In this document: piece after piece, positions 1,875-30,015 of the stretch | Numbering within the stretch: the first letter of the stretch is position 1 | How the letters are laid out: every line of letters begins with the position of its first letter | Assembly (NCBI GenBank): GCA_965225735.1 | Contig: CBDDBN010000025.1 | Span: 169,963 to 201,962 of the forward strand | Source: Denitrobaculum sp. | GTDB taxonomy: Bacteria > Pseudomonadota > Alphaproteobacteria > Kiloniellales > Kiloniellaceae | Length of the DNA stretch: 32,000 nucleotides | Reading direction: 5' to 3' | Notes under the pieces: generated by a model | Database searches by the model: none | What the model was told of the DNA's origin: nothing | Seen by the model: the letters and a program-made list of their open reading frames with translations, nothing else | Position numbers and translations under genes: made by a program

Positions 1875-3287
1875 TTAGAGGCCCAAGACAGCCTTCAACA
1901 GCAGACCCGCCAAAGAGCAAACTCCAAGAGTCTTGAGAACACCCAGTTTGAAACGGAAAAGCGCGACTGACGCGACCAGAACGATCCCCAGCGCAGGAAG
2001 ATCGAGGCTCGTGAGGAGGGGTAGATCGACGGATAGCCCCTGCCAGATAAGCGGCCGCACCTCAGAGAAAACCACCTGCAGGCCAAACCAAAGCGCGAGA
2101 TTTGCGATCACCCCAACGACCGCGGCCGTGATCGCCGCCAGCGCACCCGCAAGAGCCCGCTTTTCCTGCAGGCGCTCGATTGCCGGCGCCCCCAGAAAAA
2201 CGAAAGCGAAGCACGGTGCGAAGGTCACCCACAGTGTTAAGAGAGCCGCCGCCAGACCGCCTACCAGGCCAGAAAGACCGGCATTCGCCCCATGGCCTGC
2301 CAGGAAGCCAACGAACTGCAGCACCAGGATCAAGGGTCCGGGTGTCGTCTCTGCGAGCCCCAGGCCGGTGAGCATTTCGGTGGCGGACAACCAGCCATAA
2401 CCCTCAACCGCTTCCTGCGCGACGTAGGTCAGAACCGCATAGGCACCGCCGAAGGTGACGACCGCCATCTTGGAAAAGAACCAGGTCACATCCGCGTAGA
2501 CACCGGAATAGGGCAATAAAGCCACAAGTGGCGCCGCCCAGACGGCGAGGGCCAGGAAACCAGCCCGCCGTGCGCTACGCGCGAGCCTGCCCGCATAGCC
2601 AGGGTCGGCCTCCATGACGGAATCAAGCAGAGCTGGCGGTCCCGCCTTCGCCGATCCGTGCGCCCCGCCTGCAAACCATCCGGGCCCCAAAGCGCCGATC
2701 AAAGCAGCGCCAAGGACCACAACCGGAAAAGGCACCGAAAAGAGAAACAAAGCGATGAAGGCAGCGGCAGCAAGAGCCCAGGGAACCGCGCCTTTCAAAG
2801 CCCGCCCAGCCACCTTGAGCAAGGCTTCGAAGACGATGACCAGCACCGCGGCTTTCAGACCGAAAAACAAGGCAGCCACCACGGGCACATCGCCGGCGAT
2901 CACAAAGATCGCCGACAACGCAAACATCACCAGGGCGCCGGGAAGAATGAACAGTAAACCCGCGATAAGGCCACCCTTCGCCCCATGCAGCAACCAGCCC
3001 AGATAGGTCGCCAGTTGCTGCGCCTCAGGTCCAGGCAGCAACGAGCAGAAATTCAGCGCATGCAAAAACCGCCTGTCGCTGATCCAATTCCGGTCATCGA
3101 CGACCTCCCGGTGCATCAAAGCGATCTGGCCAGCGGGCCCGCCGAAGGACAGACAACCGATCCGCAGCCAGACCTTTGTCGCTTCGGTCAGGCTCGGCAA
3201 TTTGGCCTGCGAGCCATGATCAGAAGCCGGACCGCTGTCGGAAGTTGAAGACGAGGACATAGCGTTCGAACTCTGGTCCATTGTCAT
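1875..3287 (-). CDS. chrA: Chromate ion transporter (CHR family, long-chain ChrA)
   Basis: 470-aa polytopic membrane ORF. The N-terminal half carries the CHR hallmark RIGCLSFGGPAGQIALMHREVVDDRNWISDRRFLHALNFCSLLPGPEAQQLATYLGW. A degenerate second copy sits in the C-terminal half (VVTFGGAYAVLTYVAQEAVEGYGWLSATEMLTGLGLAETTPGPLILV). Confidence 0.9.
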   Translation of the reverse strand: MTMDQSSNAMSSSSTSDSGPASDHGSQAKLPSLTEATKVWLRIGCLSFGGPAGQIALMHREVVDDRNWISDRRFLHALNFCSLLPGPEAQQLATYLGWLLHGAKGGLIAGLLFILPGALVMFALSAIFVIAGDVPVVAALFFGLKAAVLVIVFEALLKVAGRALKGAVPWALAAAAFIALFLFSVPFPVVVLGAALIGALGPGWFAGGAHGSAKAGPPALLDSVMEADPGYAGRLARSARRAGFLALAVWAAPLVALLPYSGVYADVTWFFSKMAVVTFGGAYAVLTYVAQEAVEGYGWLSATEMLTGLGLAETTPGPLILVLQFVGFLAGHGANAGLSGLVGGLAAALLTLWVTFAPCFAFVFLGAPAIERLQEKRALAGALAAITAAVVGVIANLALWFGLQVVFSEVRPLIWQGLSVDLPLLTSLDLPALGIVLVASVALFRFKLGVLKTLGVCSLAGLLLKAVLGL

Positions 3288-4105
3288 GCCGCCACCGTCT
3301 CTGCTGACGGCCAGTCCCGAGTTTCCGGCCTGACGTCCCTGCGCCAGCGATAGAGGGCGTCATAAATTGCGAATGAGGCTGAAAGCTGCGCCAGATCGTC
3401 CGGATATATACGGGACAACCCGCGCACTGCGGCGAGGAGGCCAGCGGCTTCTGGTGCCTGCTCAAACTGCGCGCTCTCCGCGCCTCGAACGATTGTTGCC
3501 AACTGGGCGAGCGGATCGGACGTCAATCCAAGTTCGGCCAGCATGCTATCGAAGGCACATTGCTCATCACCGGCGCTCCCGAAGCCACCCTCGACAACGA
3601 ACGGAGCCGCGCCGAACTTTTCCGCAACACCCATCACTTCTTCCGGCGTGGCGAAGAGGATGACCGCGTCAGATTCGATAAAACGCCGGATCAGCCACGA
3701 AGAGGCGGTGCCGTCGACACCTGGACGCGCGCGTGTCACCCACAGCGTCCGTGCCTCGCCATCCCGTGGAGGCAATTTCGTGGGATCAACGGCCGGCATG
3801 CCGGCATCGGCCCAGCCTTCGAACCCCAGCGCCAGAGGCGCTGCTTCGATTCCTTCATGACGCAACAAAGCCGCGACACCCTGGCTGAGTTTCTTACCGC
3901 GATGACAGACGACAACGACCTTTCGACCGCGATAACACTCGCGCCAATCCTCGATATCCTTGTGACTGCGGCGGCGGGATGCGGGGATCAAACGCGGATC
4001 CAGCGCGAAGTCCTCATCGATGCGCACATCGATGATCGCGGGTGCGTCGGGCAAGCCGATCAGGCGGGAAAGTTGGTCGACGGAGATTTCAGATGGAGAC
4101 GTCAT
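3284..4105 (-). CDS. Rhodanese-domain / ChrB C-terminal (chromate-resistance) domain fusion protein
   Basis: 273-aa ORF. The N-terminal ~100 aa look rhodanese-like (IIDVRIDEDF...VVVVCHRGKKLSQGVAALLRHEG, active-site-loop CHRG). The C-terminal part (LWVTRARPGVDGTASSWLIRRFIESDAVILF...) matches my memory of the Chrome_Resist/ChrB C-terminal domain. Its stop overlaps the chrA start by 4 nt (ATGA at 3284-3287). Confidence 0.75.
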   Translation of the reverse strand: MTSPSEISVDQLSRLIGLPDAPAIIDVRIDEDFALDPRLIPASRRRSHKDIEDWRECYRGRKVVVVCHRGKKLSQGVAALLRHEGIEAAPLALGFEGWADAGMPAVDPTKLPPRDGEARTLWVTRARPGVDGTASSWLIRRFIESDAVILFATPEEVMGVAEKFGAAPFVVEGGFGSAGDEQCAFDSMLAELGLTSDPLAQLATIVRGAESAQFEQAPEAAGLLAAVRGLSRIYPDDLAQLSASFAIYDALYRWRRDVRPETRDWPSAETVAA

Positions 4106-4447
4106 AGCACGCCCTCCCTTTCGTTAAAGGCCAAGGACGCGATACTTGGGCTGACGCCTCACGGGGTGATCGCTAACCCCATGCTTATGGGGTAGCAACG
4201 GATCTGAAGGCTGTCAACCTGGAACGAATTTCGTCTCAGAACTTTCACATTTCGTTCAACAACGGCCCGGGAACTGCGCTGAAATGGCTGATTTCCGTAG
4301 TTTTGGATAGTCTGTGGGTTGAATAAGTTCGAGACGACGCGGAATGAAACGGTTATCGTCTCTGCGCATTTGAAACCCAGTTCCGCACGGTCCTGAAGGA
4401 ACAGGGCCGCAAGCAAACCTGTTGAGTATCAGCTTACCGGAAGTCTT

Positions 4448-15653: not shown

Positions 15654-16550
15654 TTGGTGAACCTCACATTCGTCAAAAGCTTTGTCACCCTTGTCGAAAC
15701 CGGCTCCTTTCAAAAGGCTGCCGAGCGCCTGAATCTCGCGCAACCAACTCTGTCGCAACACATTAGCAAGCTTGAAGAAAGTCTTGGCGTCCAACTGATC
15801 GAACGCCGGCGCGTAGGGAGTCGCGCCACACCCGAGGGTGAGACTGCGCTGGCGATCGCAAGAACGTTGCTGACGACCGCTGAGCATATGGTGCAAGCGG
15901 TGAAGCATGACTTCGTACGGATAGGCGCCAGCAGTAACATTGCGGAATACTATGTTGCCCCTGCCCTTTCGCAGCTTGAGTTAGCGGATGGGCAGACGCT
16001 TCAATGGCAGATCGAGCAAGCCGACAACCCCAGTCTGATTCTGCGGCTAAGAGACGGCTTGGTCGACATTGCGATTACCGAATGGGAACCGGATGAACAG
16101 GGCTTTGAGTCCCGTTTCTGGCGATCCGAAGAGATGGTCATTATCCTGCCGCCAGAACACCGTCACGCCTCTCAAAGCGAAATATCCCTGGCCGATTTGT
16201 CGGCGATACCGATGATTGGCGGCGGTCAGGGCACGGGCACGGGCACCCTTCTGCGCGAAGTTTTGGGGCCCAAGGCTAACCAGCTCAAAACCAGCGTTGC
16301 CATGGGCTCGACGCAGGCGGTCAAGAGCGCCGTAGCATCGGGCCTGGGCTGCTCGATTGTTCTGCGCGGTTGTGTGGAGACTGACCTGAAAGCCAAGGCT
16401 TTGGCAGCTTTGACGCTGAAGGGCTATGAGCTCCGAAAGTCCTTCTACATTTCCTTTTCAAAGGACCGATACAACCATCCCGCCATTCAAAGCTTTATGA
16501 ATGGACTGATGGTACCTTTCCCTAAAACTCCACGCCTTTCTGTGCCTTGA
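15654..16550 (+). CDS. LysR-family transcriptional regulator (PtxE-like by position)
   Basis: HTH FQKAAERLNLAQPTLSQHISKLEESLGVQLIER, followed by a LysR substrate-binding domain. The track start is TTG at 15654; GTG at 15657 is equally possible. It begins 5-8 nt after the ptxD stop. Confidence 0.85.
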   Translation: MVNLTFVKSFVTLVETGSFQKAAERLNLAQPTLSQHISKLEESLGVQLIERRRVGSRATPEGETALAIARTLLTTAEHMVQAVKHDFVRIGASSNIAEYYVAPALSQLELADGQTLQWQIEQADNPSLILRLRDGLVDIAITEWEPDEQGFESRFWRSEEMVIILPPEHRHASQSEISLADLSAIPMIGGGQGTGTGTLLREVLGPKANQLKTSVAMGSTQAVKSAVASGLGCSIVLRGCVETDLKAKALAALTLKGYELRKSFYISFSKDRYNHPAIQSFMNGLMVPFPKTPRLSVP

Positions 16551-17201
16551 CGCCCTGCTCCCGGAAGGGGTGTTTAATCTGCGTCATCTCCGTAACCAGG
16601 TCGGCGACCTCGATCAATTCGGGCTTGGCGTTGCGGCCGGTGACGATGACATGCAGGTCTTCGGGCCGGTTGTCGAGGAACTCGACCACCTCTTCCAGCG
16701 GCAGGTAATCGTAGCGTAGGACGATATTAAGTTCGTCCAGCAAAACCATGTCGTACTTGGGTTTTTCGCCATTTGACTTATCGACCCGACAAGCTTCGAT
16801 CATTTCCTTGGAGACTTCCCAGGCGCGCTTGGCGGCGGCGATGTCGCGGGCACGGTCCTGGGTATCCCAGGTGAAGCCCTCGCCCATAGTACGGATCTCG
16901 GCCAGGTCGGGGAAACGCTCCAGGACCACCCGCTCGCCGGTCTCCCACTTGCCCTTCACGTATTGCACCACGCCAACGCGCATGTCGTTTCCGATGGCCC
17001 GGGCGACCAGGCCGAAGGCGGCGGTCGACTTGCCCTTGCCTTTACCGGTGTGGACGATCAGGAGGCCCTTTTCCTCGGTCTTGGTCGCGAGCATCCGTTC
17101 GCGGGCGGCCTTGCGCTTGCGAGCTTTTTCGTTGGCCCGTTCGTTGATCTCGTCCTCGGTCAGTTCGCTCCTGGGTTTGTCGCTGGTCTGATCATTGGCA
17201 C

Positions 17202-17205
<4 letters not shown>
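16522..17205 (-). CDS. cobO: Cob(I)yrinic acid a,c-diamide adenosyltransferase
   Basis: 227 aa. LLIVHTGKGKGKSTAAFGLVARAIGNDMRVGVVQYVKGKWETGE and LLDELN match the CobO/BtuR P-loop family. The start overlaps the cobN stop (ATGA at 17202-17205). Confidence 0.9.
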
Positions 17206-21029
<3,824 letters not shown>

Positions 21030-21112
21030 GGATGCTCTCGCCCTTCACGCCGATTGGTGCGTCCGGGCTCATGGATCCGGACACCCTTTTTACCTTATCC
21101 CGCAATCGCCCC

Positions 21113-22201
21113 TTATTCGGCAATTGCTGCGGCAGCCGCCTGCGGGACGCCTTGCGCCGCGGAACCGCCGGACGCCAGCTCCGCCCGGATCGCGTCGCTG
21201 TCCATATCCGCCTCGCCGATCACCACCAGCCGGGTGGACTGAATCTCCGCCGGCTGCCAGTCGCGGTCGTAGTAATGCTGCAGCCGCCCGCCAACGCCCT
21301 GAAGCACCAGGCGCATGTCCTTGCCGGCAACCTTGGCGAAGCCCTTGACCCGCAGGATGCCGTGCCGGGCGATCACCGGCAGCAGGCGCGCGACCAGGCT
21401 CTGCGGCGTCTCGACCTCGCCCAGGTCCACGGCGAAGGAAGTGAAGTCGTCATGGTCATGCTCGTGGCCATCGTCGTGGTGGCTGGGCCGGGAGTCCAGA
21501 TCGTCCTCGGCGGCGGCTTCCAGGCCCAAAAGAACCTGTGCGTCGACCTTGCCGTAAGAACTGCGCACCACCTTGACCTCGGGCCGGATCTCTTTCTTCA
21601 CGTCGCCCAGAACCTGCTCCAGCGCCGTCTCGTCCAGCAGGTCGGTCTTGTTGATCACCACCATGTCGGCGCAGGAGATCTGCTCCTCGAAAAGCTCCTC
21701 CAGCGGGCTTTCGTGATCGAGCGACTCGTCGGCCTTGCGCTGGGCATCCACCGCCGCCGGGTCGCTGGCGAAGAGGCCATCGGCCACCGCTGGGCCATCG
21801 ATCACGGTGATCACGCCGTCGACCGTCACCTTGGTGCGGATTTCCGGCCAGTTGAAGGCCTTGACCAGGGGCTTGGGCAGCGCGAGGCCGGAGGTCTCGA
21901 TGACAATATGGTCCGGCGGCTCGGGCCGGTTCAGTAGGGTCTCGATGGTCGGAATGAAGTCGTCGGCCACGGTGCAGCAGATGCAGCCGTTGGGCAACTC
22001 CAGCACCGCGTCTTCCTCGCAGCCCTCGATACCGCAGCCCTTGACGATCTCGCCGTCGACGCCCAGGTCGCCGAACTCGTTGATCACCAGGGCGATGCGC
22101 TTGCCGCCGGCGGTCTCCAGCAGGTGGCGGATGGTGCTGGTCTTACCGGCACCCAGGAAGCCGGTGATAACGGTTGCCGGGATTTTATTCGATTGGGACA
22201 T
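21113..22201 (-). CDS. cobW: Cobalamin biosynthesis metallochaperone GTPase CobW (COG0523)
   Basis: P-loop GFLGAGKTS, CxCC motif (GCICCTV) and the His/Asp-rich stretch SRPSHHDDGHEHDHDDF typical of CobW. 362 aa. Confidence 0.9.
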   Translation of the reverse strand: MSQSNKIPATVITGFLGAGKTSTIRHLLETAGGKRIALVINEFGDLGVDGEIVKGCGIEGCEEDAVLELPNGCICCTVADDFIPTIETLLNRPEPPDHIVIETSGLALPKPLVKAFNWPEIRTKVTVDGVITVIDGPAVADGLFASDPAAVDAQRKADESLDHESPLEELFEEQISCADMVVINKTDLLDETALEQVLGDVKKEIRPEVKVVRSSYGKVDAQVLLGLEAAAEDDLDSRPSHHDDGHEHDHDDFTSFAVDLGEVETPQSLVARLLPVIARHGILRVKGFAKVAGKDMRLVLQGVGGRLQHYYDRDWQPAEIQSTRLVVIGEADMDSDAIRAELASGGSAAQGVPQAAAAAIAE

Positions 22202-22237
22202 CAGATCTGCTCACCACTGCCTGTTTAGCTTTTATTA

Positions 22238-22792
22238 TCATGAGACCGGCGCTTTTACGGTCATGGGCAGTCCCGCGACCATGAAAACCACCGAATCCGC
22301 CACCGCCGCCACCGCCTGATGCAGGCGGCCGGCATGGTCTCGAAAGTCTCGCGCCAATCGGTTCATGGGCACAATCCCAAGACCGACTTCATTTGAAACA
22401 AAGACGACCGGCCCCGCGAGCTCCGGTAGGGCCTTCACCAGGGTCTCGATCTCCACCTCAATCTCCCGCTCCTCCGCCATGAGGTTGGAGAGCCAGAGGG
22501 TCAGGCAATCCACCAGGATCGGCCGGTCCGCCTGCGCTTCACGGGTCAGGACCCCGGCGAGGTCCAGAGGTTCTTCAATCGTCGACCAGCGCTCGCCCCG
22601 CCGTTCCTTGTGGGCCGCAATGCGCGCGGCCATCTCGGAGTCCCGTGACGCCTGCCCCACCGCGGTGGCGATATAGAGGCAGTCGCCAGTCCCAGATTCG
22701 ACCAACTGCTCCGCATGGCGGCTCTTGCCCGAGCGGGCGCCGCCCAGGATCAGAGAGACGGCGGGAAGCGTCGTGAGGTCGTTCGGAGACAC
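22238..22792 (-). CDS. cobU: Bifunctional adenosylcobinamide kinase / adenosylcobinamide-phosphate guanylyltransferase
   Basis: 184 aa with the P-loop LILGGARSGKSRHAE, plus the family's size and position. The start is GTG at 22792. An ATG at 22802 is out of frame. Confidence 0.88.
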   Translation of the reverse strand: MSPNDLTTLPAVSLILGGARSGKSRHAEQLVESGTGDCLYIATAVGQASRDSEMAARIAAHKERRGERWSTIEEPLDLAGVLTREAQADRPILVDCLTLWLSNLMAEEREIEVEIETLVKALPELAGPVVFVSNEVGLGIVPMNRLARDFRDHAGRLHQAVAAVADSVVFMVAGLPMTVKAPVS

Positions 22793-23161
22793 CGGAGTCC
22801 ATAAGCCTTCAGAATTGCAAAGTGGCGGCGAGTTTCCTTAGCGGGCACGGCCGGCGCAAGGACAAACTGAATGGGGCAGAAAATCGCAGAAAATCAACAA
22901 GATCGGGCTGTGGTTCGCGAAACCCACGCTAACGCATATCACGTTGAATTGCGGTCTCCGGCTGATCCGAACGCGTTGTGCTCCGCAAACGCTGCCTCGG
23001 ATCAGCCTGCAACCACACTTATTCAATAGAACGCGATACACGCTAAATTGTGATCGCCCTGTGTGTGGCCGTCTGGGGTACGCGAACCCAGATGATTAAC
23101 CACGAGGCTGCTAACTCGACCGCCTCATCTCCATGAGACGGTGCAACCGGGAAATTGAACC

Positions 23162-23908
23162 ATGCTGAAACGAACCGCTTTGACCACACTGCAGATCTTC
23201 GTGATTCTCGCCGTGATCACCTTCATGCTGACCTCCGCCGTACGCGCGGCGGGCTTCCACGCACCGGCGTCACAGGCCAAGGCCTTGTCCGACAACGCCC
23301 AAGCTCAGAGCGGCGAAGTCATCAAGGCCGGATACTTCAAAAAGCGCCACGGCCATCGGGGCTACGGCCACCGGAAGTTCGGTCATAAAAAGTTTGGCTT
23401 CCGGAAGTTTGGACACAAACGGAAGTTTGGTCATCGTAAGTTCGGGCACCGCAGCTACGGCCACAGAAGCTTCGGACACAAGAAATTCGGCTTCCGCAAG
23501 TTCGGCCATAAGCGGAAATTCGGCCACCGGAAATTCGGTCATGGCAAGTTCGGCTTCAAGCGCCACGGCCACAAGGGCTACAAACACTCAGGCTACGTGC
23601 ACAAAGGCTACGGCCATAAGGGTTACGCGTACAAAAGCCACCGACACGACAAACACAGTCACAAGAGCCATGGTTACCATCAGCTCAGCGACGGCAAGTT
23701 CGATTACGGCGCCAGCAGCTATAAATCCACCGGCCCCAAACACCACGGCCATAACTTCAAAAACGGCAACAGCCAGAAGAAATTCGCCGTCAAGGTCCTG
23801 CCCCGCCGCAAGCCCGCGGTGAAAAAATTCAACTACGGCAGCAGCAAGTTCAAACAGAAATCCCCGAAACACCACGGGCATGATTTTAGGAATGAGCCGA
23901 GGTATTGA
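23162..23908 (+). CDS. Secreted histidine-rich, hyper-basic (K/R)(K/R)(F/Y)G(H/F) repeat protein, function unknown
   Basis: 248-aa ORF with a signal peptide (MLKRTALTTLQIFVILAVITFMLTSAVRA|AG). Residues ~60-175 are a near-continuous array such as RKFGHKKFGFRKFGHKRKFGHRKFGH. I count about 30 His. There are two C-terminal copies of a K(F)(D/N)YG.SS(Y/F)K...PKHHGH(N/D)F module. The frame choice is supported by the signal peptide and by synonymous-only divergence between the internal repeats. Confidence 0.7.
   Translation: MLKRTALTTLQIFVILAVITFMLTSAVRAAGFHAPASQAKALSDNAQAQSGEVIKAGYFKKRHGHRGYGHRKFGHKKFGFRKFGHKRKFGHRKFGHRSYGHRSFGHKKFGFRKFGHKRKFGHRKFGHGKFGFKRHGHKGYKHSGYVHKGYGHKGYAYKSHRHDKHSHKSHGYHQLSDGKFDYGASSYKSTGPKHHGHNFKNGNSQKKFAVKVLPRRKPAVKKFNYGSSKFKQKSPKHHGHDFRNEPRY
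23366..23551 (+). repeat. Tandem 93-bp (31-codon) duplication inside the His-rich gene
   Basis: Unit 1 spans 23366-23458 (GHRKFGHKKFGFRKFGHKRKFGHRKFGHRSY). Unit 2 spans 23459-23551 (GHRSFGHKKFGFRKFGHKRKFGHRKFGHGKF). 27 of 31 residues are identical, and 19 of those 27 codons differ synonymously. Confidence 0.9.
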
Positions 23909-24452
23909 TGGGTGGCATATAGAAAAGGTTGTAAGACCCAATATAGCGATCTTACTTTTCCGCTAGTCAAACTCAAAAAATATCTAAACGCTCAACTCCA
24001 ATGGACAAACTTACCGCCCCATTCTTAGCTCGAAATTGAAGATAATCTTAGCGATCTAAGAATAACCAAGCGCTCCCGCGTAGAAGAACTCTACCTGAGA
24101 AATCCAGGGCAGCTCACTATGTCCCCGGCAATTGCGGAACCGGGAAAGTTCGTTTCCCAGCGCTCTCGATAACCTAATCGCCGACAAAGGTCGATCACAA
24201 AGCCACAGATGCTGTTTTCACACCTTTCGACGAGCACAGGGTCAAGTTAAAGGCTGTGGGGTTCCTCACATTCTACAACATGCATCAGTCACATAATCAA
24301 ACTTAGTTTTTACCTACTTCATACCATTACCCCGCGTTCGCCAGTGTCAAGAATCTCCGCAGCCTCGGAGTTGCCCTAGCCCGAAGTCTACCGCAACTCG
24401 CTAGCGAATGGTTTGGATCCGACGAACGGTTGGGAAATTGAGAGGCTCGGCG

Positions 24453-27263
24453 ATGAAAAAGTTCGCTTTGGTTGCACTAATTCTTTTGACCGCTTCTGCT
24501 TGTGGTAATCCGTACGGACTAAAATTCGACAGTGTTAACCTAGACGCCGATCAACAGAAAGGCGTAATCCAATTCACTGACCCCAAACTCTACAAGCGCG
24601 AAGCTCTTATTAACGAAAGGAAAAGAGAGCGAGCCTATCTCAAAAAACTACTGGACAAGACTGAAGAAGATACTTTCGCAATTGAACCCGAGATCGTTCG
24701 AGAACTCGAAACCATTCAAGCATTTTCAGCGAGCCTTGGCCTGAAAATTGATCCCACTGCGGGCGCCAACTTTCAAAGAGACACAGAAATAGCAGAACTC
24801 AAACATCAATTTGAGCTGACTCGTCTCGACATGCAGCTATCTCAATTGAAACGCGACGCCGAACTTCTCAACGACCAACTATCGAATCAACAAACGCTCT
24901 CCCAATCAGTTGGAACGCCTTCCGGCAGCACAACCGTAAACAGCAGTGTCACACCCCCAGATCCAACAACACTCATTACTAAGATCGAAGATCTTAGGGC
25001 CAAACTTGAAAACCGGCTTAATGCACAAGTCTCTCAACCGCGGAAAGTTTCCACTGCTGTCGCTGGACCTATAGACACGCTTAACGATATTTCCGCTTAT
25101 CGCAACGCTTTAAAGAGCGCAATGAACACAGTGAGCTTAGATGAATTGCACGACAAAGGAGGCAATTCCCTTTTTCGCGTGCAACTTAAAGCGACTGTGC
25201 TTCCGGGCGACAAAGATTATCTAGATACGCTCGGTGTCTTGCGGATGGAAATCGGAAAACCAACTTGGACGGTTGACGATAAGCGGGAGCTATATCTCAA
25301 ATGGCTCCTGCATGTGAACCGCAATCTCAATCTGGTTCCCGATCCCCAAAACGCAACGGATGAAAAACGGATAAGGACGAGCCCAGGTCTAGTCACTCTT
25401 GGACAGATTGGTGATCTCTACGAAATCACCTTACTGGAGATACCAAAGCAAGGAACGACTGAAATAAGCAATGATATTGGTGCTTTTCGGTGTAAAGGAG
25501 TTCAGCAAACGGAGCGCTTTCCAGATGCTTGTTGGTACGTCAGAGTAGCAACACCTCCACTATCGTCCAGTGGTGTTACTTTAGCTCAAATGCTTGACCA
25601 AAGCGTTCAGTTCTCTTCCCGAGTAACTGGCACACTACTTGGTGCACGCAAAAGCCTTATTGAGGGAAAAGGCTTCGACGGCATCCCACTTCCTGAAAGT
25701 ACATCAATCCTTAATATGGACTGCAAAACTTTCGTATCAGCCGAAAATGAAACGTTCATCCTGCAACGCACTGATGACCGGAACCGGAAAGGCACAACAC
25801 TAAAAGCTGCGTTAGTTCAGGCACAATCAGTTCGCACCTGGTGGCCCTATGCTTCTGCCGTTATCGGTTTCCTGACCGAGTTTCAATTCGGCAATGGCCC
25901 ATCGGAACAAGCCATTCCAAAACAACTCACCCAAGTATTGACGCGGTTCCGTTCGGTTCACGAAGCGGCAGGCGCATTTCTAATCGAGCTTGCAAAAAGA
26001 AACCCATCTTGCAAAGCACAGATCCTAACGCCGGCCATCACAGTCACTCCTGATGTTTTCAAAGCAATCATTGAAAGCGCAAATCCAAGAGTCTCAGTCT
26101 ACGATGTAGCTCCGACAGAGCGAGTCCAGAGGATATCGACAGCAGCTAGAGCAGCCGACGCTATCGCTCTTGCAGCTGCGGCAACCGGACAACTTCCGAG
26201 TCACGGTATTGGGTTGAGCGGCAATTTCGCTTATTCACGGACGGCAACTGGCAAGGCAGATGCATTGGAACGCGCACCACTTGTCGTTGGTTTCGCTGAG
26301 CCTGGAGCCGACACGAATCAACATAAACCTTCATTCGGCTGGCTTCTCGGGCCTCAGATTGGCTTGAATCCAGAGGACCAATCCCTCTTTCTAAGCCAGC
26401 GCGTAAAGCCTTATGAACTATATGCCGATCTGTCTTTGCCGGGTTGGTGGCCTCACTTCGAACTCAGGACTTTTACTGCTTGGGCACCCGAATGGCGTTC
26501 GACAACAGATGGTTCAACAATAACATCCGAGGCCCTTAAGCGCGTTGTAACAGTTCCGATGGAGCACAATGCCGCCGATCTTGATGGCTTAACATCCTTG
26601 ATCCTAGAAACAACCACCGGCGAACGCGTGGCATACCCCACCATACTCTCAATCGAACCACCTGAAGTATCAGCGTGCGCCGACAACATCGAACTCCAAG
26701 TACGCGGCGAAAACATCTGGCGGGCTTCCCTAGTCCATATCGGTGGTCTTGCTATCAAAGACGCAAGCATCGAAGTGCTTCCAGATATGCGAGGTGTATT
26801 GGTCTCCGTGCCCACTAAGGATATACCTAAAATCGACAATGGACAGAATCTCGTTACCGTATGGACCAAGGATGGCCCTGCTTCCTTCCCCATCTCTTTC
26901 GACAACAAACGCAAGGCCGATGGAACATGTGAAGCCCGAACGGCTCCAGCACCGCAGCCCAAAGGTCCGGTTATTACGAGTGTTGCGCCTTCTGCTATCT
27001 CTGTCTGCGATACTGACGCAGTTTTTACAGTAGTCGGAAAAAATCTTCAAAACATTGGCAGCGCAGTCTTAGGCACAATGACCGCAAGCAGCGTGAGCGA
27101 GGTCGGGCCTCGAAACGGCACGGTATTAGAGATCAAAGTGAACGGCATCGATGGAAAGAAAAAGATCGACGCCCTTCAATTCATAAACTTGGCTATCCGG
27201 ACGCCTAAAGGTGCCACAACTGCCGATATCAACGTCGTCCAGTCACCGACAAGATGCAAATAG
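24453..27263 (+). CDS. Large orphan lipoprotein (936 aa) with an N-terminal coiled-coil-like region and two C-terminal IPT/TIG-like Ig-fold domains
   Basis: The start is trimmed to ATG at 24453, with GAGAGG 8 nt upstream. The lipoprotein signal is MKKFALVALILLTASA|CGNPYG. A charged helical region covers roughly aa 55-210, followed by an S/T/P linker. At the C-terminus are YPTILSIEPPEVSACADNIELQVRGENI... and GPVITSVAPSAISVCDTDAVFTVVGKNL.... I recognised no catalytic motif. Confidence 0.8.
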   Translation: MKKFALVALILLTASACGNPYGLKFDSVNLDADQQKGVIQFTDPKLYKREALINERKRERAYLKKLLDKTEEDTFAIEPEIVRELETIQAFSASLGLKIDPTAGANFQRDTEIAELKHQFELTRLDMQLSQLKRDAELLNDQLSNQQTLSQSVGTPSGSTTVNSSVTPPDPTTLITKIEDLRAKLENRLNAQVSQPRKVSTAVAGPIDTLNDISAYRNALKSAMNTVSLDELHDKGGNSLFRVQLKATVLPGDKDYLDTLGVLRMEIGKPTWTVDDKRELYLKWLLHVNRNLNLVPDPQNATDEKRIRTSPGLVTLGQIGDLYEITLLEIPKQGTTEISNDIGAFRCKGVQQTERFPDACWYVRVATPPLSSSGVTLAQMLDQSVQFSSRVTGTLLGARKSLIEGKGFDGIPLPESTSILNMDCKTFVSAENETFILQRTDDRNRKGTTLKAALVQAQSVRTWWPYASAVIGFLTEFQFGNGPSEQAIPKQLTQVLTRFRSVHEAAGAFLIELAKRNPSCKAQILTPAITVTPDVFKAIIESANPRVSVYDVAPTERVQRISTAARAADAIALAAAATGQLPSHGIGLSGNFAYSRTATGKADALERAPLVVGFAEPGADTNQHKPSFGWLLGPQIGLNPEDQSLFLSQRVKPYELYADLSLPGWWPHFELRTFTAWAPEWRSTTDGSTITSEALKRVVTVPMEHNAADLDGLTSLILETTTGERVAYPTILSIEPPEVSACADNIELQVRGENIWRASLVHIGGLAIKDASIEVLPDMRGVLVSVPTKDIPKIDNGQNLVTVWTKDGPASFPISFDNKRKADGTCEARTAPAPQPKGPVITSVAPSAISVCDTDAVFTVVGKNLQNIGSAVLGTMTASSVSEVGPRNGTVLEIKVNGIDGKKKIDALQFINLAIRTPKGATTADINVVQSPTRCK

Positions 27264-27297
27264 CTCTGCTCTAGAACAGCGTGAGAGGAGAACCACC

Positions 27298-27492
27298 ATG
27301 GAAAGAGGCCGCGTTAAGTCATTTGGAGGCGGTCAAGGCACTATTGAACCTGATGAAACTGGGAAGCCGGATGTGTTTTTTCTGAGTACTGTTGTCGAGG
27401 GCTCCAAAACACCCGCTGTCGGCGCCGCTGTCGAATATAAACTTTATCAGAGTGGCGGCGAACCTGAAGCAAAGAGGGTGGTGATTATTTGA
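27298..27492 (+). CDS. 64-aa cold-shock-domain-like (OB-fold) protein with degenerate RNP motifs
   Basis: ATG at 27298 is preceded by GAGAGGAGAA. MERGRVKSFGGGQGTIEPDETGKPDVFFLSTVVEGSKTPAVGAAVEYKLYQSGGEPEAKRVVII aligns by eye to CspA (G.VK.F...G.G.I.PD..G.DVF...S......G..V.....G..P.A..V). It lies 34 nt downstream of the lipoprotein gene. Confidence 0.6.
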   Translation: MERGRVKSFGGGQGTIEPDETGKPDVFFLSTVVEGSKTPAVGAAVEYKLYQSGGEPEAKRVVII

Positions 27493-27653
27493 AGTCACTA
27501 AATGTATGACCAAAAACTATTGGGGAGCGTAGCGACCAACATTCCTTTCGTACATAGTAATTAGGCACGGATTTCTTGTTGCATTAAGAATCCAGTTTTA
27601 AAATCATGTTCGATAACCCGCGAAATTCCAGTGACACAGCACCCAAGTTTCGG

Positions 27654-27680
27654 CGCGAATTACAGAAACATAATGCTTAA
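27654..27680 (+). repeat. Left copy of a ~25-nt imperfect direct repeat flanking the IS (cgcgaattacagaaacataatgcttaa)
   Basis: It aligns with 29235-29259 at 23 matched positions with three 1-2 nt gaps. Confidence 0.6.
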
Positions 27681-27978
27681 TTATTCGGTCGGGCGAACTA
27701 CCTCTTTCTTTTAGAAATGACGATGAACTTGGCTGGAGAGTCAAGACATCGGGCGTTAAACCAGCAACCGATCACGCCCAAACAAGGACCCAATCCCGCT
27801 TGCTCGGTGACGATCTCATCGGACCGATCCAATTGAGCTATTGTGTCGTGTGTCTGGTCCGTGTGTCGGGGATATTGAAGCATCGGGGACATGGCCGTAA
27901 TCGCGGCTGGTCACGCTCCGAGCCTATAGTAGGGGTTCTGTGTTGAGCAGCCCCAGTAGGCCATGAAGGAGCGCGACC

Positions 27979-29007
27979 ATGGAGTATTATATCGGTTTGG
28001 ATGTGTCCCTGAAAGAAACCCATCTTTGTTTGGTCGATCAGGCAGGTAAGGTTCTTGGCCGGCGCCGGGAAGTGAGCCGTCCGGATCTTCTGGCTTCGGC
28101 GATCAGGTCTCTTGCGCCCGAGGTTCGGTTGGTTGTTCTGGAGACGGGTGGACAATCGAGTTGGCTGCAGCGCGAACTGAGCGCTTTGGGTGTGCCGGCG
28201 GTGATCGTCGATGCCCGACGCGCCAAAGCGGCCTTGAGTTGCCGGATGAACAAGAGCGATGCCAATGACGCGGAAGGCTTGGCGCAGTTGGCCCGCACCG
28301 GCTGGTACCGGGAAGTGGCCGCCAAGCGGCCGGAAGCGCGCCTGGCGCGGGCGTCTTTGCTGGCCCGTCAGCAACTGGCGAAGCAGCGGCGCGATCTGGA
28401 GAACTGCATCCGGGCGCTGTTGCGGGGTTTTGGTCTTCCTGTTGGGATGGTCAGCCGGCGCGGTTTCGAAGCGCGGGTGTGGGAGTTGCTGGGTAAGGAA
28501 ACTTTACTGGAAGAGGCCGTGGCGCCTCTGCTGCAGGCCCGCCGTGGCTTACTGGTTCAGATCGAGGTGCTGGAACGTGACATCAAGGCTCTGGCAGCGG
28601 CCTCTGCGGTCTGCACGCGCCTGATGAGCGTTCCCGGTGTGGGTCCTATGACGGCGCTGGCCTTTGTGAGCGCCATCGACGATCCGGACCGCTTTACACG
28701 CTCGAGCGCGGTGGGTGCCTATCTCGGCCTGACCCCTCGACGTCATCAATCGGGTGAAGTCGACTGGTCCGGCCGGATCTCCAAGCGGGGCGATGCGCTC
28801 GCGCGGCACATGCTCTATGAAGCGGCCAATGCCTTAATGGTCAGGACCAAGAAGTGGTCGGCCCCCAAGGCCTGGGCCTTGCGCAAGGCGGCCCGCATCG
28901 GCCCCAAGAAAGCTCGGGTGGCCCTGGCCCGCAAGCTTGCTGTGGTCCTGCACCGTATCTGGGTCGATGGCAGCGAATTCCGTTGGACGAAGGAGGAAAC
29001 CGCCTAA
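27979..29007 (+). CDS. IS110-family transposase (DEDD RuvC-like N-terminal domain plus Tnp_20 C-terminal domain)
   Basis: 342 aa. MEYYIGLDVSLKETHLCLVD, VVLETGG and NKSDANDAEGLAQL give the DEDD pattern. The C-terminal LMSVPGVGPMTALAFVSAIDDPDRF...YLGLTPRRHQSGEVDWSGRISKRGDALARHMLYEAA is the classic IS110 signature. AAGGAG is upstream. Confidence 0.95.
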   Translation: MEYYIGLDVSLKETHLCLVDQAGKVLGRRREVSRPDLLASAIRSLAPEVRLVVLETGGQSSWLQRELSALGVPAVIVDARRAKAALSCRMNKSDANDAEGLAQLARTGWYREVAAKRPEARLARASLLARQQLAKQRRDLENCIRALLRGFGLPVGMVSRRGFEARVWELLGKETLLEEAVAPLLQARRGLLVQIEVLERDIKALAAASAVCTRLMSVPGVGPMTALAFVSAIDDPDRFTRSSAVGAYLGLTPRRHQSGEVDWSGRISKRGDALARHMLYEAANALMVRTKKWSAPKAWALRKAARIGPKKARVALARKLAVVLHRIWVDGSEFRWTKEETA

Positions 29008-29176
29008 GGCACCAAATACACTAAGACCAGTTCCGTCCCCGCCGGGACGCGAGGCTCGGGCTCATCCCGCAAGTATTGTTGCGCCCCGAAAGGGACAAAC
29101 GCGTGGCAGGGACATTGGGAAGCCTGGACCTCTTGGAAGCCATCCTGCGGCGAGCCTCATGAAAGGCCCATCAGAC

Positions 29177-29195
29177 CGCGTAGACAACCATGATA
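29177..29195 (+). repeat. Internal third copy of the flank motif (cgcgtagacaaccatgata) in the IS 3' non-coding end
   Basis: It matches 29235-29254 (cgcgattagacaacataata) except for small indels and one substitution. It lies 170 nt after the transposase stop and 28 nt before the right subterminal IR. Confidence 0.55.
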
Positions 29196-29234
29196 CCGGC
29201 GGTGACGTACAAACCGGAGCTTGACCGAAACACT

Positions 29235-29259
29235 CGCGATTAGACAACATAATACTTAA
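29235..29259 (+). repeat. Right copy of the flanking imperfect direct repeat (cgcgattagacaacataatacttaa)
   Basis: See the left copy at 27654-27680. Confidence 0.6.
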
Positions 29260-29302
29260 CTCAGCGCTCCTGCTCAGGTCTCAAAAAAGATTCTTAAGGT
29301 TT

Positions 29303-30015
29303 CTAGCGGTGAACGCAACGCTCCGCGTCGGGCATGTGCGGCGGTAAGGCACGCTGTAGGACTCGGGCGGTGGCAACGACGTAATCAGCGTCCGGCTGTG
29401 ATATCAGAGACCCGATGTGAGATATGACGCGATCAGGGGGTTCGAGGTGACCCTCCAATAGAGTTCCTGCAGACCGGGTGTTCGCTCGAGCAAGCCAGGC
29501 AGCCATTCCAGGTATGAACTCAATGCCTAGGCCAGGACGACATCGGCGAAGGTCATCTGGTCCGCAACGCAAGAACCCGACCCCTGCGTCACGATGATCA
29601 CCTCGAAGCGCGGGCTGAACTTGGCAAAGCGCGCTTCGAGTTCGGCGGTTGCGATTTCGACACTGGGCCTAAAGGCGACTTGCATCACAGTCTCGGCGAA
29701 GGCAGCAACGACACCTGCGATCATGTCGGCCCACATGGCTTCCGTATCATTGGCGCCGTAAAGCCCGCCCCGCCGCGCGAGATAGCGGATCGTCGCGGAG
29801 GACTGACTGGGGTGATGGCCGTCCAGCTCCAGCAAGGGCATCTGGTCAAAGTGAGGTTTGCCGGATGCGCGCAGGTCCGCCGGTTCTGCCGCAGTGTCTA
29901 TGGGCAGATTGACGAAATCGACACCGGTGCCGGTCAGCGTTTCCGAAGTAACGCCGTGATCACGAAAAAAACCGAAGAAACCTTCGTTACCTAGAGTACG
30001 GGTGCCAAAAAGCAC
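29303..30015 (-). pseudogene. Glutathione S-transferase, disrupted by a frameshift
   Basis: ORF 29527-30015 carries GST-like N-terminal and central blocks (HFDQMPLLELDGHHPSQSSATIRYLARRGGLYG, ...CVADQMTFADVVLA) and then stops. The expected C-terminal block (LGIEFIPGMAAWLARANTRSA) continues in another frame in ORF 29303-29572. An in-frame TAG lies directly upstream of the GTG start. Confidence 0.55.

Follow-up and report, generated by a model that had tools for sequence, protein, structure and literature searches.

Several kinds of short-repeat, aromatic or histidine-rich polypeptide have been described that resemble parts of the gene considered here. SilE and PcoE are disordered periplasmic proteins that bind Ag+ and Cu+ (PMC5008109). 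In Vibrio cholerae, a 57-amino-acid (aa) aromatic/cationic loop of Bap1 adheres non-specifically to lipids and abiotic surfaces, also when ionic strength is high (PMC10102183), and at least four tandem GHGLY pentapeptides lead to His-switched coacervation of squid-beak proteins (PMC6884462). Here we analyzed a 32,000-nucleotide stretch of DNA from Denitrobaculum sp., family Kiloniellaceae (contig CBDDBN010000025.1, positions 169,963 to 201,962; hereafter the window), and in particular a gene at window positions 23162 to 23908 that encodes a basic protein with a predicted export signal and tandem pentapeptides rich in Lys, Phe, Gly and His, hereafter the KFGH-repeat protein. Judging from its sequence, this is an undescribed protein that is restricted to Kiloniellaceae and falls in no described family. 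It can be placed among the secreted low-complexity proteins that are His-rich or cationic, and its sequence is striking. The features of the gene are the following.

23149-23154, plus strand: ribosome-binding site GGGAAA, 7 nt before the ATG (GGGAGA or GGAGA in the aligned orthologues)
23162-23908, plus strand: coding sequence of the KFGH-repeat protein, ATG start, 248 aa, stop codon included
23162-23248, plus strand: predicted Sec signal peptide, aa 1-29 (MLKR, hydrophobic core, TSAVRA/A, the slash marking the predicted cut)
23249-23329, plus strand: early-mature spacer, aa 30-56, net charge 0 by charge count
23330-23641, plus strand: repeat core, aa 57-160, with (K/R)(K/R/S)(F/Y)G(H/F) pentads, about 15 regular and 4-5 degenerate
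23363-23548, plus strand: two copies of a 31-aa block, at aa 68-98 and 99-129, from an old internal duplication (Tandem Repeats Finder period 93)
23642-23692, plus strand: H/K-rich segment RHDKHSHKSHGYHQLSD, aa 161-177, length-variable and poorly conserved among orthologues
23699-23764, plus strand: C-terminal module 1 FDYGASSYKSTGPKHHGHNFKN, aa 180-201, with PKHHGHNF at aa 192-199
23828-23893, plus strand: C-terminal module 2 FNYGSSKFKQKSPKHHGHDFRN, aa 223-244, with PKHHGHDF at aa 235-242

Among its 248 residues the protein has 41 K, 33 G, 30 H, 24 F, 19 R, 13 Y, 5 D and 2 E, and a composition count found no Cys or Trp in it and no Met in its mature part. The net charge of the mature chain is +50 from K/R alone, with seven acidic residues in the whole protein. 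An earlier first-pass annotation of this DNA had put the number of His at about 30 and had called the repeat core essentially free of acidic residues; both statements hold, with 30 His counted and a single acidic residue in aa 57-170. The Sec signal peptide that it proposed is likewise predicted here by hydropathy and by the residue rules for positions -3 and -1. The n/h/c layout consists of MLKR, a 12-residue hydrophobic core (I12-L23) and VRA/AG, the small residues V27 and A29 occupy positions -3 and -1, and the segment is near-invariant across orthologues. Cleavage probably occurs near VRA/AG (between A29 and A30), and the mature chain after this cut is about 219 aa. The 27-aa spacer that follows has a net charge of -2 to +1 in 8/8 orthologues, as compared to +40 to +56 for the remainder of the protein. 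This neutral spacer might let the Sec machinery engage the chain ahead of the basic domain, which would keep the protein export-compatible.

The repeat core is regular, and lag-5 periodicity of H, G, F/Y and K/R exceeded that of 2000/2000 shuffles. It contains 15 [FYH]-G-[HF] units in residues 61-137, spaced by 5 residues and twice by 6, each of the form (basic)(basic/S)(F/Y/H)-G-(H/F), and these are followed by 4-5 degenerate GY-x-H units up to about residue 158. At the DNA level, Tandem Repeats Finder reported periods of 15 bp and 93 bp. The first-pass estimate of about 20 pentads in a row therefore holds if the degenerate units are included, whereas the strict pattern (K/R)(K/R)(F/Y)G(H/F) has only 9 matches; similarly, the repeats are real but the protein is not made 'almost entirely' of them, since the core accounts for 104 of the 219 mature residues, about half. 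The longest His run is 2. The two PKHHGH(N/D)F modules noted earlier were recovered at aa 192-199 and aa 235-242, and the modules that carry them are near-identical to each other. Their pattern, F-x-Y-G-x-S...P-K-x-H-G-H-x-F-(K/R)-N, was kept in 8/8 orthologues and had no match outside the orthologue cluster in a HMMER search of 1.84 billion representative proteins.

AlphaFold2, run with the orthologue alignment, returned a mean predicted local distance difference test score (pLDDT) of 47 and a predicted template-modeling score (pTM) of 0.15. The only confident element was the signal helix at residues 2-29, and the repeats scored 36-46. The model contained no strand anywhere, no secondary structure past residue 48 and no folded domain, so that the mature protein is predicted to be an intrinsically disordered polycation. 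These properties separate it from the Pfam Pentapeptide clan, whose A(D/N)LXX repeats form a right-handed quadrilateral beta-helix. That fold needs a small residue at position i-2 and Leu/Phe at position i, whereas here, with Phe taken as i, position i-2 is Arg/Lys in 74% of the units.

The failure of the first-pass annotation to recognize a family was borne out by our searches. Pfam gave no family even at E ≤ 10 for the whole protein or its parts, the Pentapeptide clan included; NCBIfam and PHROGs gave nothing for the protein; a profile search of all PDB sequences gave nothing at E ≤ 10; and exact strings of the repeat, looked up in 8 million papers, gave nothing relevant. The C-terminal 73 aa, used as a lone query, had no word-sharing candidates. 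A search of 5.8 billion proteins found only five relatives, two of which were full-length orthologues with a signal peptide and both C-terminal modules, and a metagenome scan added only two matches, both short and at the level of the repeat. A scan of species-representative genomes gave five further orthologues, all in the marine alphaproteobacterial family Kiloniellaceae (Denitrobaculum, Pelagibius and unnamed genera). Cultured carriers of the gene include Denitrobaculum tricleocarpae R148 (locus L008) and Pelagibius sp. Alg239-R121 (locus L006). The closest orthologue is 68% identical, and orthologue identity ranges from 43 to 68%, as compared to 79-96% for the neighboring Cob proteins, which indicates faster evolution of the repeat protein. 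Such fast divergence would be typical of exposed, interaction-type proteins. Repeat number is variable and length varies by 50% (225-337 aa). The mature net charge is +48 to +54 in 7/8 orthologues and +40 in the eighth, a constancy that is only suggestive because the sequences are related.

Several observations show that the gene is real and under purifying selection, as judged by comparison of its sequences. All eight orthologous coding sequences in Kiloniellaceae loci are uninterrupted; the broken repeat frames that the first-pass annotation had named as a sign against the protein were thus not seen. Pairwise dN/dS among orthologues is 0.14-0.25. The two 31-codon duplicates are 90% identical as protein and 73% identical as DNA, with 20 synonymous and 5 non-synonymous differences between them (pN/pS 0.06). 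Because the duplicates have diverged as DNA and yet been kept as protein, the comparison shows that the repeat has been maintained by selection on the protein and is not the product of recent slippage.

We also considered that the reading frame might be non-functional, either a chance open reading frame (ORF) in a simple DNA repeat or the shadow of a true gene on the opposite strand. The sequence is of low complexity, and long antisense ORFs are present at window positions 23270-23587 and 23588-23941 and reach 253-300 aa in loci L005 and L008. In contrast, the duplicates share 90% of their residues in the plus-strand frame and 27-67% in the other five frames, and their differences in the coding frame are mainly synonymous (20 versus 5). 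This far higher identity, together with the dominance of synonymous changes, rules out a chance ORF and an antisense gene. The ATG, a GGAG-type ribosome-binding site, the signal peptide and the non-repetitive C-terminal modules are common to the 8 genomes, and codon usage is host-like, which also argues against a spurious frame. We therefore regard the non-functional alternative as effectively refuted.

Horizontal acquisition was suspected from a drop in total GC content at position 23000. This possibility was rejected, as the GC content at third codon positions (GC3) is host-like (0.75, versus 0.78-0.87 for the cob genes) and foreign DNA begins past the stop codon. The low total GC of the gene is due to its Lys, Phe and His codons. 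On codon usage, then, the gene is native to the host genome. A separate observation concerns synonymous divergence among orthologues: pS reaches 0.79-0.93 in the repeat core (window 23330-23641), far above the 0.38-0.56 of the C-terminal region and the 0.19-0.49 of the signal peptide. Either non-orthologous units have been aligned with one another, or codon scrambling has been selected to suppress recombination between repeats.

The exhaustive HMMER search returned 204 hits. The C-terminal modules were matched by the orthologue cluster only, and the other hits covered the repeat region alone, most of them unrelated low-complexity pentapeptide tracts. About 20-25 hits, however, shared the whole front architecture of signal peptide, spacer and aromatic-Gly-His-basic pentads in small proteins of 100-165 aa with net charges of +9 to +31, with E-values of 1e-5 to 1e-11 across signal peptide and repeats. 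Their spacer is 25-40 aa long, neutral or acidic, and ends in phi-x-V-G-(F/Y)-(K/R)-(K/R). All named examples are annotated as 'hypothetical' (among them P0003, P0035, P0064/P0155, P0097 and P0158). Unlike the Kiloniellaceae protein, these small analogues lack the two C-terminal FxYGxS..PKxHGHxFRN modules, and many end in a short tail of hydrophobic and basic residues, for example ...KKKFF. Their lineages are scattered and for the most part metagenomic, and their neighbors, inspected at six loci, are unrelated. From the alignments, the Kiloniellaceae protein appears to be the long, two-module form of a sparse, undescribed group, in which homology is inseparable from convergence.

In a related sub-group, an Acidobacteriota metagenome-assembled genome (L010:7990-11560) encodes a secreted HRSFGH-repeat protein of 305 aa with a non-repetitive C-terminal domain; P0156 and P0162 are related forms. 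Its gene lies downstream of genes for a histidine kinase and an OmpR-type regulator, with one 219-aa ORF without a Pfam match between, and directly upstream of a gene for a trypsin-like protease. The context of this sub-group may be of the envelope-stress type.

To compare the units, we built a logo anchored on F/Y/W-G, which fixes the aromatic residue and the Gly by construction. Of the anchored units, 74% have K/R at position -3 and 71% have it at position +2. His follows aromatic-Gly in 75% of the units of the orthologues and in 56% of those of 24 small secreted analogues. In the orthologues it is swapped for F, S, Q or A, and several analogues contain only 2-5% His. In these sequences His is thus the least conserved defining position of the unit, with charge and the basic-aromatic-Gly arrangement kept more.

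Our tentative preference, held at well short of even confidence, is that the KFGH-repeat protein is a multivalent extracytoplasmic binder of polyanionic surfaces or polymers. This reading is favored over that of a dedicated cation ligand because charge, aromatics and Gly are constant whereas His is frequent but replaceable. Sec export and cleavage near VRA/AG would release a disordered chain of about 219 aa and about +50, carrying some 20 flexible 'stickers', each with Lys/Arg, Phe/Tyr and His in alternation about a Gly. Electrostatic contacts and cation-pi pairs would come from Lys/Arg and salt-tolerant cohesion from Phe/Tyr, and His, uncharged at seawater pH, could form metal- or pH-tunable cross-links. 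The twin C-terminal FxYGxS...PKxHGHxFRN modules, with their HGH motifs, might act as specific docking or metal sites. The targets could belong to the cell itself, as its envelope or exopolymer matrix, or be anionic surfaces on algal or invertebrate hosts; Kiloniellaceae have repeatedly been reported from corals, octocorals, sponges and algae. The cleavage site, final location, binding partners and role of His in this scheme are those that we infer from the sequence.

A number of points weigh against such a binder. No secretion-system, matrix or exopolysaccharide genes are adjacent to the repeat gene, and a polycation of +50 could be toxic to the membranes of its producer. His is still enriched, at 12-14%, and HGH and HHGH are classic metal ligands, so that metal binding could be the primary role. 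The Bap1 and squid-beak precedents are analogies of composition and not homologues, and the small secreted analogues may be convergent low-complexity proteins rather than true relatives.

The likeness to these precedents can be stated more closely. In composition, though not otherwise, the Bap1 loop is similar, as it consists of aromatic/cationic pseudo-repeats that include Gly and His (core SYWFFGWHTK). It is an insert in a folded beta-prism/beta-propeller adhesin that binds Vibrio polysaccharide, and it is Trp-rich and far less charged (PMC10102183), whereas the KFGH-repeat protein stands alone, with no folded or Pfam domain found. Squid histidine-rich beak proteins carry their tandem Gly/His/aromatic pentapeptides in a disordered chain, and four or more such units are enough for coacervation on His deprotonation (PMC6884462); the protein described here has 15 regular pentads. 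The beak proteins are near-neutral (isoelectric point about 6) and lack Lys/Arg, whereas the protein described here has a charge of +50 and no homology to them. By this analogy, its self-coacervation would need a polyanion partner or high salt.

A more far-reaching version of the polyanion-binder reading, which we consider rather improbable, is that the protein is an exported polymer of cation-pi and His stickers, the first from bacteria to serve by itself as a 'glue' or condensate and one that has converged on the proteins of mussel feet and squid beaks. At the salinity of seawater, its coacervation with anionic exopolymers or with glycans of the host would fasten coral- and alga-associated Kiloniellaceae to surfaces, and it would be the long form of a wider unrecognized class of small secreted aromatic-Gly-His basic repeat proteins. 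If this were true, bacteria would have come independently to the grammar found in animals for coacervation and wet adhesion, in which short units repeated in tandem combine Gly and His with cationic and aromatic residues. The protein would then offer a genetically simple template, free of Cys and of 3,4-dihydroxyphenylalanine (DOPA), for salt-tolerant adhesives, as well as a handle on the attachment of host-associated marine alphaproteobacteria.

The conservation of the unit bears directly on a second explanation, that the protein is a periplasmic sponge or buffer for Zn2+, Cu2+, Ni2+ or Co2+ in the manner of SilE and PcoE, binding excess or scarce metal through its His array and its HGH/HHGH motifs. 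The potential ligands are abundant: there are 30 His, HGH motifs at aa 63 and 135, an HRHDKHSHKSH segment at aa 160-170, an HxHxxHxH motif, and the two conserved KHHGH(N/D) modules. Like SilE (PMC5008109), the protein is predicted to be Sec-exported (by the rules given above) and intrinsically disordered, and it contains His that would allow many weak metal sites. It adjoins cobW/cobN, and analogue P0003 has, at a distance of 4-6 kb, a gene for an extracytoplasmic function (ECF) sigma factor and one of the Metal_resist family. In contrast, two cationic residues per pentad and a charge of +50 disfavor cation binding, and metal chemistry leaves both unexplained. There is no Met or Cys and almost no Asp/Glu to serve as ligands, of the unit positions that of His is most often replaced, and some analogues have almost no His. 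We found no metal efflux or uptake genes, metal-regulator box or riboswitch, and the genomic contexts of the analogues are heterogeneous. Closer comparison with SilE and PcoE points the same way. Neither matches the repeat protein in Pfam or PDB sequences at E ≤ 10; SilE has paired His/Met motifs (HxxM/MxxH), whereas here the mature chain has no Met and is hyper-basic; and SilE lies in a metal-efflux operon, whereas this gene is flanked by cobU-cobW-cobN-cobO and by an insertion island, and no genes related to metals occur but chrBA, 19 kb away. We consider a dedicated metal buffer less likely than a polyanion binder, though the foremost of its rivals. If it were true, a His-only polycation would have to be added as a new type to the periplasmic buffers.

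Two other metal-related types resemble the protein less. Cytoplasmic His-rich storage proteins and chaperones for Ni/Co, such as Hpn and the His stretches of HypB and CobW, have poly-His runs with Asp/Glu or Cys, whereas here there is a predicted signal peptide, the His runs do not exceed 2, and there are seven acidic residues and no Cys. For the predicted cob-linked cobalt transporter CbtB/CbtA, with its His-rich small subunit, we found neither a Pfam match nor an adjacent membrane-protein gene.

Host-associated lineage, rapid divergence and changes in repeat number would also be in keeping with a secreted cationic antimicrobial or host-directed protein used in competition or eukaryotic-host interaction, perhaps in the form of a histatin-like precursor whose cleavage at many dibasic sites would yield short K/R-F-G-H peptides. 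Histatin 5 closely resembles the repeat protein in composition, as can be seen by comparison with aa 133-172, KRHGHKGYKHSGYVHKGYGHKGYAYKSHRHDKHSHKSHGY; the palette of residues (H, K, R, G, Y, F and S, with few acidic residues) is nearly identical, and both are disordered and secreted, the repeat protein by prediction. In addition, in the Acidobacteriota analogue the trypsin-like protease gene lies directly downstream of that analogue's own repeat gene. Histatin 5, however, is a 24-aa animal peptide with an amino-terminal Cu(II)/Ni(II)-binding (ATCUN) site, as compared to a 219-aa bacterial protein with strict 5-residue periodicity. The predicted mature N-terminus, AGFH, and the AVPQ of orthologues do not have the X-X-H of that site, and no family match, PDB match or homology to histatins was found. 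No immunity, processing-protease or export genes are adjacent in Kiloniellaceae, there are almost no aliphatic residues, so that an amphipathic membrane-active structure is not expected, and the conserved C-terminal modules and total charge argue for function of the intact chain. We therefore consider this explanation unlikely.

The remaining question was whether the position of the gene next to cobalamin-synthesis genes is informative. The first-pass annotation had described it as divergent from cobU-cobW-cobN-cobO across 369 bp; Pfam confirmed the four genes, and the interval is exact. The features on this side are the following.

16522-17205, minus strand: cobO
17202-21029, minus strand: cobN
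21113-22201, minus strand: cobW, whose product carries HHDDGHEHDHDD
22238-22792, minus strand: cobU
22793-23161, no strand assigned: divergent intergenic region of 369 bp, shared with cobU
23041-23111, plus strand: conserved upstream blocks CGCTAAAWYGTGATCG..YGTGTSTGG (23041-23068) and CCCARAT..TTAACCACGAGGCTGC (23087-23111), a candidate promoter/operator

One explanation for this arrangement is that the protein is an accessory of cobalamin synthesis, an extracytoplasmic scavenger of cobalt or corrinoids co-regulated with the cob operon through the 369-bp region. Divergent adjacency to cobU was found in 8/8 orthologous loci, His can coordinate cobalt and corrinoids, and the next backbone protein-coding gene on the other side, where found (L001, L006, L007 and L008), encodes a DUF1636 protein, a family often seen in cob clusters. 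However, the adjacency is limited to Kiloniellaceae genomes with 88-94% identical CobN. The linkage that the first-pass annotation had proposed to look for in orthologues is thus present, but in genomes too close to inform; because their Cob proteins are 79-96% identical, the adjacency appears to be shallow synteny without functional weight.

Regulatory sequences gave no support to co-regulation. At the Rfam gathering threshold, neither the window nor any of 6 orthologous loci showed a cobalamin riboswitch, and a search of 22600-24500 at E ≤ 10 gave only chance-level matches. A crude scan with consensus sequences for Fur, Zur, Irr, RirA, NikR, Pho, EcfG, sigma-54, CtrA and the B12 box gave nothing above shuffles in the region, no B12 box being found in the orthologous loci either. 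A sigma-70 scan found 0 promoters, and no plus-strand terminator was found. The conserved upstream blocks adjoin the KFGH gene, are kept in 8/8 loci amid varying intergenic DNA, include a conserved direct repeat YGTGAT-N5-YGTGTS at 23049-23065, and form a motif found only there in the window and loci. They are distinct from the cobU-proximal conserved blocks at 22828-22865.

Moreover, none of the six analogue loci is near cob genes, and they have no common neighbor. The neighbors are, in turn, DUF3303 and a GMC oxidoreductase; a two-component system and a trypsin-like protease; pyruvate phosphate dikinase (PPDK) and a Vut_1-family putative vitamin transporter; DsbA and AmtB; purA and a histidine kinase; and an OmpA-domain protein and an M23 peptidase. 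Near the KFGH-repeat gene there is no transporter for cobalt or corrinoids, and picomolar seawater cobalt would presumably need a high-affinity site, not a cation-repelling array. From gene order and sequence, the repeat protein does not appear to be a dedicated part of the cobalt-chelatase pathway, its adjacency being inherited gene order, and we regard an accessory role in cobalamin synthesis as very unlikely. The Co/Ni/Zn buffer tied to the cob operon that was proposed at first pass loses its footing for the same reasons (shallow synteny, no riboswitch, B12 box or metal-regulator box, analogues not linked to cob, and His the least conserved position), and the polyanion-binder and histatin-like alternatives that it also mentioned fit the conserved features at least as well. 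Whether the protein proves to be a polyanion binder or a metal sponge, an attractive but unsupported link to cobalamin synthesis is removed, and a sparse, unannotated class of secreted low-complexity proteins is flagged, which standard pipelines label 'hypothetical' or mask.

Other features of the intergenic region were also noted. In the window (16522-22792) and six orthologous loci, the cobU operon has a leader of only about 45 nt behind blocks TTGTCCTTGC..CTAAGGAAACTCGC (cobU strand). The short leader and the lack of a detectable cobalamin riboswitch suggest that B12 feedback at cobU-cobW-cobN-cobO is protein-based or absent. A hairpin resembling repetitive extragenic palindromic (REP) elements, with perfect 11-bp arms GGCTGATCCGA and TCGGATCAGCC and a conserved 26-nt loop, lies at window 22947-23020. 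Upstream of the repeat gene it occurs at 5 loci, where the changes in its arms are compensatory, and it is absent or replaced in 3; inverted copies lie just 3' of the repeat gene at L007:10736-10773 and L004:4193-4230. The hairpin was considered as a leader or regulator of the KFGH gene and rejected, because it is missing or replaced in 3 orthologues and occurs in inverted copies downstream, which is REP-like behavior. An insertion of about 260 bp that resembles a miniature inverted-repeat transposable element (MITE) is present inside the 5' leader of the repeat gene at L008:9701-9963 and L004:3043-3305 (96% identical); at that site L006 carries a different one, of about 110 bp.

On the other side, homology to the closest relatives stops at the stop codon of the repeat gene, and window 23917-29316 is an insertion of about 5.4 kb relative to them. 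Its cargo includes a 951-aa ORF (24408-27263) with a lipoprotein-like N-terminus and a GC3 of 0.46, and an IS110-family transposase gene (27979-29007). The 951-aa ORF had no Pfam, PDB or PHROG match, and in NCBIfam only a sub-threshold 'choice-of-anchor Z' repeat (25 bits versus a cut-off of 30). It was considered as a functional partner of the repeat protein and rejected, as no orthologous locus has a counterpart. Other genomes have different cargo at the same position, bounded by an unusual tRNA gene and the DUF1636 gene. On this comparison, the repeat gene is followed by a variable insertion hotspot, with no other conserved gene between them.

The unusual tRNA gene is 92 nt long, lies 200-450 bp 3' of the repeat gene and scores 58-64 bits against the Rfam tRNA model. 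It is absent from the window, L005 and L006, and was found at the following positions.

L008:11323-11414: unusual tRNA gene
L009:11204-11295: unusual tRNA gene
L007:11138-11229: unusual tRNA gene, first copy
L007:12661-12751: unusual tRNA gene, second copy
L001:17107-17198: unusual tRNA gene

The tRNA has the anticodon UAU (Ile/AUA), a class-II-like long variable arm, A73 and an encoded CCA, and its T-stem shows a compensatory change from GUGGG/CCCAC to GUCGG/CCGAC. It may be an integration hotspot, because different insertions adjoin it in different genomes. A long-arm tRNA with an Ile anticodon is odd, and it could be subject to mischarging.

At the other end of the window lie chrA (1875-3287), which encodes a chromate transporter, and chrB (3284-4105; ChrB_C and rhodanese). 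Immediately upstream of chrB, on the minus strand at 4103-4185, is a chrB-a RNA motif (RF03078, 72.9 bits), the sole Rfam family in the window.

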